DNA from: a virus | Taxonomy: Duplodnaviria > Heunggongvirae > Uroviricota > Caudoviricetes | Virus record (IMG/VR): IMGVR_UViG_637000105_000002 | Length of the DNA stretch: 62,656 nt | Direction: 5' to 3' (one strand) | Part shown: positions 48,001 to 62,656 of the stretch, piece by piece | Numbering within the stretch: position 1 is the first letter of the stretch | Layout: the number at the start of each line of letters is the position of its first letter | Made by a program: the position numbers

Positions 48001-51000
48001 GAAGTTCCGGCGGATGAAAGCCCGGAAATGACAGAAGGCTATGAAGGTTTCTATCACCTGGCGAGCATGAAAGGCACTGTTGAACGGGCCGATATGCACT
48101 ACATCATCCGTGATTTCGACCGTAAACAGTTTGAAGCGCGTAAACGTAAAATGATGGAGATCGCTAAAAAAGTGGGCAAAGGGTTACATCCTGATTGCTA
48201 CATTGAACTGGTGATTGAAGACAGTTACTACAATATGCGCGAGAAAGTGGTTGAGCATCCGCATATTCTCGATATCGCCCAGCAGGCGATGCGTGACTGC
48301 GATATTGAACCGGAACTGAAACCGATCCGCGGCGGTACCGACGGCGCGCAGTTGTCGTTTATGGGATTACCGTGCCCGAACCTGTTCACTGGCGGTTACA
48401 ACTATCATGGTAAGCATGAGTTTGTGACTCTGGAAGGTATGGAAAAAGCGGTGCAGGTGATCGTCCGTATTGCCGAGTTGACGGCGCAACGGAAGTAAGC
48501 AAAAAGGGATGCGGCATGTGATGCCGCATCCGGCTTAAATCCAAACTTACCCTTCGAAGAACCAGTATCCGCTATTGACCAGCGCCGCGAGCATCGCGAG
48601 GAATGACGGATCTTCCAGCGCATCGCCAAAATTCTCCGCGGTCAGCGCAATGTTGCTGGCGAGTGCATCCAGTGCCGGACGGTGCGGGGAATCGATTTTC
48701 TCACCATTGGCATACACGTCGTCGCCAATGCGCAATACGCGCAGACCCCCCAGGCGCACCAGCACATCACCTTGTTTCAGCGCATCGTAGATTTCATCCG
48801 GCTGATAAGGCGGCTCTGGCGGCGCGATATCCAGTTCATGACGTGACTGGGATATAAACTCGCCAAACCATTGCTTAAAGTGTTCCGGCTGGTTGATCAA
48901 TTCGAGCATCATCTCACGCAGTTTATCCATCTCTTGCGGCAGAACGTCCGCAGGATGAGCGCGAGGTGGAACATCAGGATCGCTGTAGTAGTTGCCGCCC
49001 AGTTCACGTTGCAGCACATAATCGGCAAATCCGCTAATCAGTTCCCGCGTATTCGGCGCGCGAAAACCCACGGAATAGTTCATCGCATTTTCCAGCGCGT
49101 AGCCTTCATGCGGGAATCCTGGCGGAATATAAAGAATATCGCCAGGCTCCAGCTCTTCATCGATGATGGCTTCGAACGGATCGACCTGTAACAGATCCGG
49201 GTGCGGGCAGTGCTGTTTCATTTGCAGCTTTTCACCCACTCGCCAGCGACGACGACCGGTACCCTGAATGATAAACACGTCGTACTGATCGAGATGCGGG
49301 CCGACGCCGCCGCCCGGTACAGAAAAAGAGATCATCAGATCATCAATACGCCAGTCCGGTAGTTCACGGAACGGTCGCATTAGCGCAGCGGTCGGCTCAT
49401 GCCAGTGGTTCACTGCTTGCACTAACAATGACCAGTTAGTTTCTCCGAGATGATCGTAGCTTTCGAATGGACCGTGGCTGACCTGCCATTTGCCATCCTG
49501 ATGACTGACCAGTCGACTGTCGACTTCGCTTTCCATCGCCAGACCCGCCAACTCGTCTGGAGAGATTGGGTCAATAAAATTATTAAAGCCGCGTTTTAAC
49601 ACCACCGGGCGTTTCTGCCAGTGACGTTCAAGAAAATCGGGCCAGTTAAGAGTGAGTTGGTATTCCATGTTAAGCATCCACAGGCTGGTATCTGCAACCG
49701 ATTATAACGGATGCTTAACGTAATGCGTGAAGTATGGACATATTTTATCAATTAGTGTTTTTTGCCGTTTCATAATGTTTCAGATTGTTCACTATGTTTT
49801 TGATTATAAACAGATTTGTGATTTTCCTTGTTCCAGCTTGTTTCACGTTGTAGCCCTTTGTGCAACGATCGGTGTAGTTAATGGTGTAGTTAATTGTGAT
49901 GACCGGAATCAAAATTATGAGCAGAGCACTTAACAAACTGAGCGATACACAGCTGAGGAAAATCAACGGCACACCCGCCCAAAAAACAGCCTTTCTTAAT
50001 GACGGTGGAAACCTGAGCGTCAGGCATTCAACCAGCGGCCTTTTAACCTGGTATTTCACCTACAGGGCCGGAACGGGAAGGGGAGCACGACCGGAACGGA
50101 TTAAGCTGGGAAATTATCCTGATCTGAGTCTGAAAGCTGCCAGGGAAAAAGCGGCACAGTGTCGCGCTTGGCTTGCTGAGGGGAAAAATCCACGTCATGA
50201 GATGAATTACACCGTACAGAAAGCGTTAAAGCCCGTAACGGTTGGCGATGCGCTTACCTACTGGCTTGAGTCTTACGTAAAGGAAAACCGCGTGGATTAT
50301 GCCGCCCTGAAAAAGCGCCTTAATAATCACGTAATACAGCACATTGGTGCTATGCCGCTGGATAAATGCGAGCTACGGCACTGGCTGGCCTGTTTTGACC
50401 AGGTGGCAAAGCGAACGCCTGTTACTGCCGGATTCTTGCTACAGACGTGCAAACAGGCGCTTAAGTTCTGCCGGAGGCGGCGCTATGCAATCAGCAACGT
50501 TCTTGATGATATGAGTGTGGCGGACGTTGGGAAAAAACCGGATATAAGCGAGCGTGTCTTAAGCACCAAAGAACTTGGCGAATTATTGCAGGCACTGGAC
50601 AAAAAAATATTTTCCCCTTACTACGTCGCACTAATCCGCCTCCTGATTGTTTTCGGATGCCGGACGGTAGAACTGAGGTTATCGGAGATCAGCGAGTGGG
50701 ATTTTACCGAAATGCTCTGGACCGTGCCGAAAGAACACAGCAAAACGAAGGTGGCAATATTCCGGCCCATACCGGAAGCAATACTGCCGTTCGTCACGCA
50801 GCTGGTGGAGCAGAACAGGCACACGGGCTTATTGCTGGGGGAAGTGAAACAGGAAACAAGCGTGTCGCAGTACGGCAGATTAGCGCACAGGAGGCTAAAA
50901 CACCCTCACTGGTCACTGCATGACATCCGGCGCACCTTTACAACGATGCTGAACGATTTAGGCGTGGATCCTCACGTCGTGGAGCAGCTTACAGGTCATC

Positions 51001-60000: not shown

Positions 60001-62656
60001 CTGGCTTTCTGGCTGGGTGGCGTCATGCCGTAAGCGTTCGCCGTGCCAGCATGGAGCAATCAGCCGATACAGAACAGTAAAGCCGATAACTTGTTAATCA
60101 CTCGCAGCAATGCATGTGATTTGTGCACACTTTCGGTTAACTGGTTCGATGTCCGGTTTTAGTGTCTGTTTTTTGCGCATGTCCGGTTCATGGAAAGCAT
60201 GTTTTTATATTTTTCATATGGTTAACTTGCAGAGAAACCGGACATGGATCCCGAAAAATTTTCATAAATAGTGAAAACGCGCGAGGTCGCCGCCCCGTAA
60301 CGGGCCATAATTCCAGGAAGGACCCGACGACACCAGACTATCAGAACGATGGGGGCACAATGACAGAAGCCGAAATACTGCGATTAATCCGCCGCGTTGC
60401 CGGAATCAGCCAGCAGGCCGACGAACAGACCACGCAGCCGGACAGCGTGACCGCCGAAAATTATGTTCGTGTGGTTGCTGAGGTGATTCGCCGTAATGGT
60501 ATCCAGCTTAATGATGTGGATATGCGCAACATACGGATCCGCGTTCTTGAAATGCTGGCCTACAATCGCCGCGTGGCACTGTATCGGGAAACGGAGAAAA
60601 TTACGTACCACTGGAAGAAGCCGGAGCGGTTGCGGCGGTAACTGGTTGATATTTTCGAAATTCGCCAGCGGCGAACATCGGGGAAACCAGCCTAACCCGT
60701 TGATATTTTCGGGAACCTCAAATTGAAGAGGTCGGAAACATAACCCGTCATATTCTGGATGCTGATAATTACCACGCAGCCCATTAAGGCCTAACCCGTT
60801 GATTCTTCCACAATCCCCCATTGGGGGAGGCTGGGCGGCCTGCTGTGGGCTTTTCCACCATTGGTGGAAAGGCGCACATCTGGATCATCATTACGGTGAT
60901 CAAGGGTATGTAAAACCCACCAGCCTGATTGACATTTAACCGGAAAAAAGCCAGGTAGCCCCGTTATGGGGATCCCCATATCGACATTAACGCCCCTCAT
61001 GAATTGGCGCGCTTCCCCCTGGAAAGATGACCCGCCTGTATATTTCTTGTGTCTATTTGTTCCACGTTGTTTCATACAGTGCAACGATCGGTGTAGTTAA
61101 TGGTGTAGTCAATTTGCGATTTTTAGCACTTTTTGCAGTGCAAATCATTTAATTAAATCAATGGCTTGCCTTGATGTAGTGATAAAAGGACATATTTATT
61201 CATCTTTCGGTGCAGAATGCTGGCGACCAAAAATCACTTCCATCCGCGCACCGCCCAGCATGCTCTCTCCGGCGACGATTTTACCCTCATATTGCTCGGT
61301 GATTTCGCGGGCTACCGCCAGCCCCACACCTTGCCCAGGGCGTAAAGTATCAACCCGTTGACCACGGTCGAAAATGACCTCTCGCTTGCTTAATGGAATA
61401 CCGGGGCCATCATCCTCGACCACAATATAGAGATGCTCGTCGGTTTGCCTTGCAGAAATTTCGACAAATTCGAGGCAATATTTACAGGCATTATCCAGCA
61501 CATTACCCATCACCTCGACAAAATCGTTCTGCTCACCAACAAAGCTGATCTCTGGCGAAATATCGAGAGAGATATTGACCCCTTTGCGTTGATACACTTT
61601 GTTCAGCGCCGAGGTGAGATTGTCCAACAGTGGGGCGACCGGATGCAGCTCGCGGCTAAGCAATGTCCCGCCGCGCATACTGGCACGATGCAGGTAGTAC
61701 CCAATTTGCTGTGAAATGCGGCTGATTTGCTCCAGCATTACCGGCTCAGCATCACTGACGCTCATCTTCTCACTACGCAGAGAACGCAGCGTACTTTGCA
61801 GCACCGCCAGTGGCGTTTTCAGACTATGGGTCAGGTCGGTGAGCGTCGTACGATATTTGTCGTAACGTTCGCGTTCACTTTTTAACAGTCGGTTCAGGTT
61901 TCGTACCAGACTGGTCAGTTCTCGCGTTGTGGCTGGATTGAGCAATTCACGGTTATGTTCTTCCAGTTCGCGGACTTCTTTTGCCAGGGCTTCGATGGGG
62001 CGTAAACTCCACCAGGCGGCGACCCACAGCAGCGGGATCACTAACAGCAGATTGGCTGAGAGCACATAGATAAACCAGCTCCAGACCATATAGGAACTTT
62101 TTAGCTCCACCGGAATGGTATCCACCACCACAATGGTTAACTTTGGCATCCGCGATGTTGCCGGGTAGACGTTTACCGCCACCGAGTGGGTCATCTCCGC
62201 GTCGTCATCATCTTCCCGCACTTCCTGCAACTGTTGCTGTATCGAATGATCTCCACTCAGCAAGAGGCTGGTATCGTTAACATCCGCTTCAATTTCATGA
62301 AAACCATTCGATTTCAGCCAGTCAGGCTGGATCATCTTCATCAGCCAGGGCACGTCACGTTGCGCCCATAAAAGCTGCCCGTTCTCATCATAAATTAGTG
62401 TCATCGTGGGGCTTTGCTTGTCGATATTTTCGGGTAACTCGACATGCAACTTATTGTTTTCCCACTTCGCAAGGGTATAGAACAGATTGCTCTCGCCACG
62501 TAACAGCCGAAACGTGGTTTTATCGAAACTGACGCTATAACCGATCAGCGCAACCATTCCGTAGGCAAGCGAAAGCACCAATACTACTGCTGCCGTTGCT
62601 AACAGAAAACGTACCCGCAGCGAGAGCGGGAAAAAAAGATGCAGTAATTTTTTCAT

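Follow-up and report, generated by a model that had tools for sequence, protein, structure and literature searches.

The stretch of DNA analyzed here, called the window, is the 62,656-nucleotide IMG/VR virus record IMGVR_UViG_637000105_000002 (Caudoviricetes). Between roxA (ycfD) and phoQ it holds a compact block with an integrase gene at one end, a primase gene and replication origin in the middle, and two λ-type cos sites flanking a packaging-redirection gene, rppA, near the other end. By its sequence, the block is EcCICFT073, a published satellite that is already known. EcCICFT073 is the prototype of the Gram-negative phage-inducible chromosomal islands, or PICIs, and is of the cos type (Fillol-Salom 2018 ISME J, PMC6092414; 2019 Mol Cell, PMC6739421). 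Window positions 49700–61200 are 100% identical to uropathogenic Escherichia coli CFT073 NC_004431.1 1377713–1389213, and the same sequence occurs in several CFT073 re-sequencings and in strain ZH063. Compared base by base with CFT073 1328014–1390713, the whole window shows only 2 differences, at 5347 and 61700, both of which are N in RefSeq; a CFT073 position minus 1,328,013 gives the window position. Table S1 of PMC6092414 enters the element as AE014075.1 1377749–1389210, 11.4 kb, attachment (att) sequence GGACATATTT, ycfD–phoQ, a range that converts to window 49736–61197. The cos1 and cos2 sequences of Fig. S5 in that paper map to window 59510–59810 and 60330–60030. Because the nucleotide identity is complete, and because coordinates, att, flanking genes, cos1, cos2, and rppA all match, the block is identified with the published element, from which it has no sequence difference, and nothing contradicts this identification.

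An earlier note on this DNA had proposed an integrative phage satellite in the roxA–phoQ interval, with a λ-type cos and without a virion gene set. The proposal is borne out, and it has been published for the identical sequence (PMC6092414, PMC6739421). As a discovery the block has no importance, since the element is already published and mechanistically dissected. It matters as an annotation: the correct label is EcCICFT073, which runs from 49736 to 61197 and has its helper outside the window, and not a P4-like parasite of the adjacent prophage. The features of the island are as follows.

49736–49745, no strand: attL core GGACATATTT (Table S1 of PMC6092414, K-12 empty site, rebuilt junction).
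49860–49890, plus strand: left 31-bp repeat, with two tandem 12-mers GGTGTAGTTAAT at 49871–49894, just 5′ of int; putative P′ arm.
49917–51146, plus strand: int (c1483), tyrosine integrase of P4/CP4-57 architecture (Arm-DNA-bind_3, 1e-18; Phage_integrase, 5.6e-17; RefSeq coding sequence).
51512–51700, plus strand: alpA, activator needed for induction (Pfam Phage_AlpA, 3e-18).
51753–53926, no strand: variable small-gene region, with a Bro-N remnant, 2 minus-strand genes, an Icd-like gene, and 4 overlapping small open reading frames (ORFs).
52229–52402 and 52460–52639 (YlcI/YnfO), minus strand: the small minus-strand genes of the variable region.
52839–53039: Icd-like coding sequence of the variable region.
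53932–54231, plus strand: DUF4222 protein, translationally coupled to pri-rep (Pfam DUF4222, 1.2e-24).
54228–55982, plus strand: pri-rep, primase/replication initiator (AAN79964; Pfam D5_N, DUF5906, Pox_D5).
55996–56225, no strand: ori, two opposed iteron sets, (C/T)TGTCTACC and GGTAGA(C/T)A, around AT-rich stretches.
56271–56528, plus strand: 85-aa protein (phrog_1231).
56525–56935, plus strand: ssb (Pfam SSB, 4.8e-17).
56946–57194, plus strand: perC-like regulator, an accessory gene (Pfam PerC, 2e-35; RefSeq coding sequence; Table S1 of PMC6092414).
57449–57655, plus strand: 68-aa protein, coupled to the capsid gene (phrog_3255).
57655–58710, plus strand: c1499, diverged homologue of the λ gpE-type major capsid protein (Phage_cap_E, 5.4e-51).
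58722–59057, plus strand: c1500, homologue of gpD-type head decoration protein (HDPD, 2.5e-17).
59070–59483, plus strand: c1501, 137 aa, Nu3 scaffold-like (phrog_1999; phrog_53, 1e-8); the tetA marker site in published work.
59510–59645, plus strand: cos1, with cosQ, cosN (59545–59556), and a PICI-specific cosB; the site recognised by the RppA–TerS complex.
59646–60080, plus strand: rppA (c1503), 144 aa, redirecting phage packaging protein (RppC, PDB 6HLK, E = 5.3e-31; PMC6739421).
60143–60330, minus strand: cos2, with cosQ, cosN (60284–60295), and cosB, inverted relative to cos1.
60360–60641, plus strand: 93-aa protein (phrog_1561; RefSeq coding sequence).
61079–61109, plus strand: right 31-bp repeat, with 12-mers at 61090 and 61102; putative P arm.
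61188–61197, no strand: attR core GGACATATTT; the phoQ stop codon overlaps it (Table S1, empty-site comparison).

The earlier note had listed a P4-type integrase, AlpA, a primase of the P4 α type followed by iterons, SSB, and a PerC-like regulator, and all of these are present, as judged by Pfam and by iteron counts. It had also reported no gene for a large terminase, portal, protease, tail, or lysis protein, and none was found among the island ORFs in ORF calls, RefSeq coding sequences, Pfam, and PHROGs. Its gene list was correct in what it named but incomplete, as it omitted the gpE-like capsid gene, the gpD-like decoration gene, the Nu3-like c1501, and rppA.

Every property of a Gram-negative PICI that a sequence can reveal is found in the block. 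There is an integrase, together with a specific att site that has a short direct repeat at both junctions. The alpA gene lies 3′ of int, and the gene order is essentially unidirectional, rightward. A primase-helicase (Pfam) is accompanied by an iteron origin: the 288-bp spacer 3′ of pri-rep carries TCTACC six times and GGTAGA five times within 55996–56225, a layout that matches the origin organisation tested by ori deletion in Fig. 2 of PMC6092414. At 11,452 bp the element falls within the ~10–15 kb expected of such islands, and its inventory by ORF calls, Pfam, and PHROGs contains neither lysis nor tail genes, nor a full complement of head or packaging genes. The arrangement of an Rpp-type cos PICI is also found, i.e., an Rpp gene beside a cos with phage-like cosQ and cosN and a non-phage cosB. 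Helper-dependent induction, packaging, high-frequency transfer, and interference have been shown experimentally for this exact sequence (PMC6092414; PMC6739421). Table S1 of PMC6092414 names rdgR and perC as the accessory genes of EcCICFT073; rdgR could not be assigned to any ORF, and a 2025 paper makes no mention of it. To summarize, it is nearly certain that the block as a whole is explained by EcCICFT073, a cos-type, Rpp-type PICI with the published mechanism.

The ends of the island differ from those first proposed. A perfect 31-bp direct repeat, GTGCAACGATCGGTGTAGTTAATGGTGTAGT, occurs in two copies in the window, at 49860–49890 and 61079–61109, and had been thought to bound the block. The repeat exists and its right copy had been placed correctly, but the left copy had been set at 49848–49878, 12 nt off, where the sequence is TTGTAGCCCTTTGTGCAACGATCGGTGTAGT, and the bounding role does not stand. 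In K-12 MG1655, the empty roxA–phoQ spacer is 75 bp long and reads ...GTGAAGTATGGGCATATTTATTCATC..., with the flanks joined at GGGCATATTT; judged from this empty site, the CFT073 flanks join within GG(G/A)CATATTT. Joining the flanks at the 10-bp repeat (49446–49745 plus 61198–61497) rebuilds a 600-bp junction that 4822 of 5426 complete E. coli genomes contain uninterrupted, with 100% identity in strain FDAARGOS_536. The site is interrupted in ~11% of the 5426 genomes, and an element covering at least 80% of the island is present in 45 of them. Had the 31-mer been the crossover sequence, empty roxA–phoQ intervals should contain a single copy of it; the rebuilt junction contains none, and it is the 10-mer GGACATATTT that passes this comparison. 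The K-12 empty site and the junctions at the 10-bp repeat in 4822 genomes thus rule out the 31-bp repeat as the att core. They also indicate that the island is 11,452 bp long (49736–61197) and bounded by GGACATATTT, in place of a unit of ~11.3 kb ending at the 31-bp repeats.

Both 31-mers are internal to the island, 115 bp (left) and 79 bp (right) from the junctions, and in the reconstructed attP they stand on both sides of the core in the same orientation. Each contains two tandem 12-mers, GGTGTAGT(T/C)AAT, whose positions relative to the core are −98 and −86 for one pair, +135 and +147 for the other. A TTGTT(T/C)CACGTTGT motif is found 5′ of each 31-mer, at −131 and +102. Because of this attP layout, and because the integrase has an Arm-DNA-bind_3 domain, the 31-bp repeats are probably Int sites of the arm type, one on the P arm and one on the P′ arm.

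The published experiments were done on an element with 100% sequence identity to the block (EcCICFT073; PMC6092414, PMC6739421). The cycle is as follows. Lytic growth of a lambdoid helper (the CFT073 prophage φ4, λ, or φ80) supplies a phage factor that switches on alpA, and AlpA activates the rightward island operon. Int excises the 11,452-bp circle, and Pri-Rep fires the iteron origin, generating concatemers. RppA, a winged-helix protein derived from TerS and encoded immediately 3′ of cos1, pairs with the phage small terminase subunit (TerS) as a heterodimer. This heterodimer no longer binds the phage cosB, which accounts for interference, and binds the island-specific cosB of cos1, bringing the large subunit (TerL) to the λ-type cosN. 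Island multimers are packaged in full-size helper capsids, injected into new cells, and reintegrated by Int.

Upon mitomycin C induction of CFT073, a marked island was transferred at 8e3 to 1e5 per ml; deletion of int abolished excision and transfer (transfer <1), deletion of alpA gave <1 transductant, and deletion of pri-rep left a transfer of ~50, ~100-fold lower, while a pri-ori plasmid replicates (PMC6092414). It is likewise published for EcCICFT073 that an int-attP plasmid integrates, that the island excises and circularises spontaneously, and that helper-dependent transfer reaches up to 1e6/ml. AlpA acts as an activator of its own promoter, its over-expression from pBAD-alpA is enough for excision and runaway replication, and alpA is switched on by λ or φ80, not by SOS alone (also published for EcCICFT073). 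Phage TerS is required for packaging: with φ80 ΔterS, transfer was <1 (PMC6092414). RppA (c1503), the N-terminus of which has a weak Nu1/TerS-like helix-turn-helix, joins the DNA-binding domain of TerS in a heterodimer, so that recognition of the phage cosB is blocked and specificity for the cos1 cosB is created (PMC6739421). The role of cos1 is backed by Δcos1 and cosB-swap experiments (PMC6092414; PMC6739421), and cos1 is required for packaging, whereas cos2 is not (PMC6739421). A requirement for RppA has likewise been published.

From the size of the element, the earlier note had expected either small capsids or packaging of multimers. With λ as the helper, all packaged DNA is phage-sized (PMC6092414), so that the multimers stand and the small capsids do not. 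We infer that four island copies (45.8 kb) fill a λ-size head, because 45.8 kb fits such a head, whereas three copies (34.4 kb) fall below the λ lower packaging limit. This limit is ~78% of 48.5 kb. Four copies are also consistent with the better transfer of the size-neutral cat island relative to the enlarged tetA island.

Within this account, no phenotype is known for the genes of the capsid, decoration, and Nu3-like proteins, and the published papers offer no explanation for the role of cos2 (PMC6739421). In addition, the authors speak of two cos sites being skipped, which implies three copies, whereas the 11,452-bp arithmetic favours four.

The choice of helper is where the earlier note and the published work part company. 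The note had proposed the λ-like prophage in the window as a candidate helper. That prophage is φ2, since the published φ2-2c deletion primer maps to 44986–45050, its potB-proximal right end. A helper role for φ2, the lambdoid prophage inserted beside potB, has several things to recommend it. The island cosN, GGGCGGCGACCT, is identical to the prophage cos at 20520, as had been noticed; the window has exactly three occurrences of it, the prophage one at 20520 (+) and the two island copies at 59545 (+) and 60284 (−), with 0.01 expected by chance. Island cos2 shares the cosQ–cosN–cosB layout of φ2, with 84.3% identity over 140 nt of cosB and three CCGGACATG-type elements. Furthermore, φ2 has an apparently complete λ-like head and tail module, and it shares a TerS of 100% identity with PhiR12_1, a phage that forms plaques. 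Deletion of the CFT073 prophages one by one gave a different answer: Δφ2 left transfer unchanged (5.19e3 vs 8e3), but Δφ4 lowered it to <1 and abolished induction (PMC6092414). In CFT073 treated with mitomycin C, φ2 is thus not required as helper, nor does it suffice. It may also be defective, as it contains several pseudogenes and an IS200 that separates the Q gene from the late genes. The primer mapping and the deletion results contradict the note on this point, and a helper role for φ2 is improbable. The helper in CFT073 is φ4, and the shared cosN is a generic lambdoid cosN that carries no helper specificity.

The φ4 cos given in Fig. S5 maps to CFT073 1,424,709–1,425,010, ~35 kb past the right-hand end of the window, and adjoins a full-length Nu1-family TerS. 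The window prophage was considered as φ4 itself and rejected: the Fig. S5 φ4 cos matches it only over cosQ–cosN (89.5% of 86 nt) and has its full match elsewhere in CFT073. The serum-survival gene iss is carried by φ4 just upstream of its cos, at CFT073 1422880–1423173, outside the window. As for φ2, the insertion is an IS200C copy at 13687–14145, between the Q antiterminator gene and the tRNA and lysis genes; it might impair late transcription and explain why φ2 does not act as helper. The φ2 late region includes three annotated tRNA genes (Ile, Arg, Arg) at 14291–14540. A search of the literature on φ2 inducibility returned no useful report.

The capsid-type genes raise a second alternative. 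The c1499 product is 47% identical to the φ2 gpE homologue, and the closest capsid protein to it among 50,697 phage records is 47.3% identical; the c1500 product is 36% identical to the φ2 gpD homologue. Residues 49–131 of c1501 are 36% identical over 83 aa to residues 416–493 of the φ2 S49 peptidase (gpC-type), i.e., to its extreme C-terminus, which is Nu3-like. The island order, capsid then decoration then Nu3-like, differs from the λ order. Because identity to phage capsid proteins does not exceed 47.3% and the gene order is not that of λ, these comparisons mark the module as an old, satellite-specific lineage and not a recent acquisition. Deletion of c1499 or c1500 left transfer and interference unchanged, and c1501 has served as a marker site (PMC6092414). 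No explanation of the c1499–c1501 module was found in later literature, including the Dokland review, which notes the same puzzle.

One might suppose, then, that the block is a capsid-forming PICI (cf-PICI), an island that builds its own small capsids. Diverged capsid, decoration, and Nu3-like scaffold-type proteins are encoded in one operon, and the capsid protein belongs to the satellite-specific lineage just described. The cf-PICIs encode all the head and packaging functions (HNH, TerS, TerL, portal, protease, and connectors) besides the capsid gene (Alqurainy et al. 2023), whereas the island is limited to capsid, decoration, and scaffold-like genes; portal, protease, TerL, TerS, HNH, and head–tail connector genes are all absent from its ORF, Pfam, and RefSeq inventory. 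The phage-sized DNA packaged with λ and the lack of effect of the c1499 and c1500 deletions point the same way, and we regard this alternative as very unlikely. EcCIEDL933 is presumably the cf-PICI prototype. It resembles the island in having capsid genes and the same integrase family, EDL933 Z1835 scoring 0.978 relative to c1483 in the orthology table of PMC6092414.

The P4-like label used in the earlier note fares worse. Like the island, P4 has the integrase architecture, an AlpA/Vis-like regulator, an Icd-like gene, a primase related to the island enzyme through the C-terminal part of P4 α, a cos of its helper, and a size near 11.5 kb. Unlike P4, the island has no plasmid state and follows another gene order. 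No Sid, Psu, or Delta homologue was found among the island ORFs scanned against Pfam and PHROGs, and no match to the P2/P4-type cos pattern within 3 mismatches; the cosN is λ-type. Gene content and organisation are reported to differ from those of P4, only three proteins being distantly related (PMC6092414). A P4-like satellite is thus scarcely credible here. A fixed, defective prophage remnant, the usual annotation of such blocks (O-island 51 type), would agree with the prophage-like genes and with the ~11% of genomes in which the site is occupied, but the published spontaneous excision, circularisation, int-attP integration, and helper-dependent transfer up to 1e6/ml leave it with next to no credence.

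With the block identified as EcCICFT073, its second cos site offers one modest new lead, absent from discussion in the papers on the island. In alignments, cos1 diverges from all compared phage cos sites ~30 nt 3′ of cosN. On the other hand, cos2 is collinear with the φ2 cos through cosQ, cosN, and ~140 nt of cosB, including the three CCGGACATG-type elements, which lie at 60238–60246, 60178–60186, and 60148–60156 in cos2. The φ2 site used in this comparison is as follows.

20484–21224, plus strand: cos and terS of φ2, outside the island; cosB of the same type as island cos2; the part set against cos2 is 20484–20675.

Among the 50,697 phage records, cos2 finds its best match in the cos of PhiR12_1 to PhiR12_5, which are phages that form plaques (93.3% over 179 nt). 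The 140 nt after cosN are 95.7% identical to PhiR12_1, compared with the 84.3% given above for φ2, and identity falls to 38% immediately past the third element. The TerS that φ2 and PhiR12_1 share (20715–21224 in φ2) is chimeric relative to λ Nu1: it matches the Nu1 family only at residues 49–150, and the DNA-binding region at its N-terminus bears no relation to the one in λ or φ4 Nu1. With cosB and the 5′ end of terS taken together as its marker, the φ2/PhiR12 terminase class occurs in 1146 of the 5426 complete E. coli genomes. In the 2018 and 2019 papers the island was set against λ, φ80, and φ4 alone, no phage cosB was reported in it, and the authors ask why some PICIs carry two cos sites (PMC6092414; PMC6739421). 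The 2022 analysis by Murialdo and Feiss makes no mention of cos2, and no explanation of cos2 or its cosB was found in later literature.

We suggest, tentatively, that cos2 could be a cognate, Rpp-independent full cos for the φ2/PhiR12 terminase class, i.e., a second entry to packaging, with its cosB half a swappable cassette that tracks the local phages; we consider this a real possibility, somewhat short of probable. Two helper classes may be involved: RppA and cos1 would operate with a TerS of the λ/φ80/φ4 type, and cos2 would be used directly by a terminase of the φ2/PhiR12 type. A cos2 of this class may explain the presence of two cos sites in the island. Against the proposal stand the lack of effect of Δφ2 on transfer and the possibility that φ2 is defective, in view of the IS200 insertion and the several pseudogenes described above. 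Moreover, packaging by a phage of the φ2/PhiR12 class would still need alpA induction. If the proposal is true, cos PICIs would hedge between helper classes by means of two differently specified cos sites, and a wider host and helper range would be expected for these virulence-gene-carrying islands.

Two related Rpp/TerS PICIs at roxA–phoQ, in NCTC86 and Z1323HEC0423, share with the island int, alpA, pri-rep, the capsid module, and convergent cos1 and cos2. They differ in having an Rpp variant or a full-length TerS between the cos sites, and in a cos2 cosB that is island-specific: in a comparison with window 60100–60335, the cosQ–cosN half of cos2 is identical, and the cosB half differs from just after cosN, where the breakpoint lies. 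The NCTC86 cos2 cosB has no match to any known phage, and that of Z1323HEC0423 gives partial matches of 72–75% to phage cos regions. The cassette-like variability of cos2 is thus clear from the alignments, and mimicry of a phage cos is strongly suggested only for the CFT073 variant, because the NCTC86 cosB lacks a phage match and the Z1323HEC0423 matches are partial. The NCTC86 cos2 cosB resembles the cos1 cosB of the TerS-bearing Z1323HEC0423 island. In the latter island, at the same site, a full-length 180-aa TerS occupies the exact slot of rppA, which fits the derivation of Rpp from TerS.

A cos-type Staphylococcus aureus pathogenicity island, SaPIbov5, resembles EcCICFT073 in carrying its helper's cos and a homologue of the major capsid protein (PMC6092414). 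The SaPIbov5 homologue, Ccm, makes small capsids; the island homologue has no phenotype, island DNA is found in full-size heads, and specificity comes from Rpp. To the published account of EcCICFT073 the present comparison would add the 31-bp repeats as probable arm sites, the Nu3-type likeness of c1501, and the assignment of the cos2 cosB to the φ2/PhiR12 class.

Within the variable region, a 428-aa ORF at 51753–53039 was considered as a gene and rejected. The frame has no protein-family support beyond a weak Bro-N remnant (E = 0.013) and is a composite of that remnant, the antisense of the two small genes, and the Icd-like coding sequence. In the sister islands, a truncated BRO-N gene is annotated where this frame lies.

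A terminator-like hairpin, GCCGGAG-AATCCGGC with a T run after it, is present in two near-identical forms, at 57217–57234, 3′ of perC, and at 59487–59508, 3′ of c1501. The T run of the latter extends into the cosQ of cos1.

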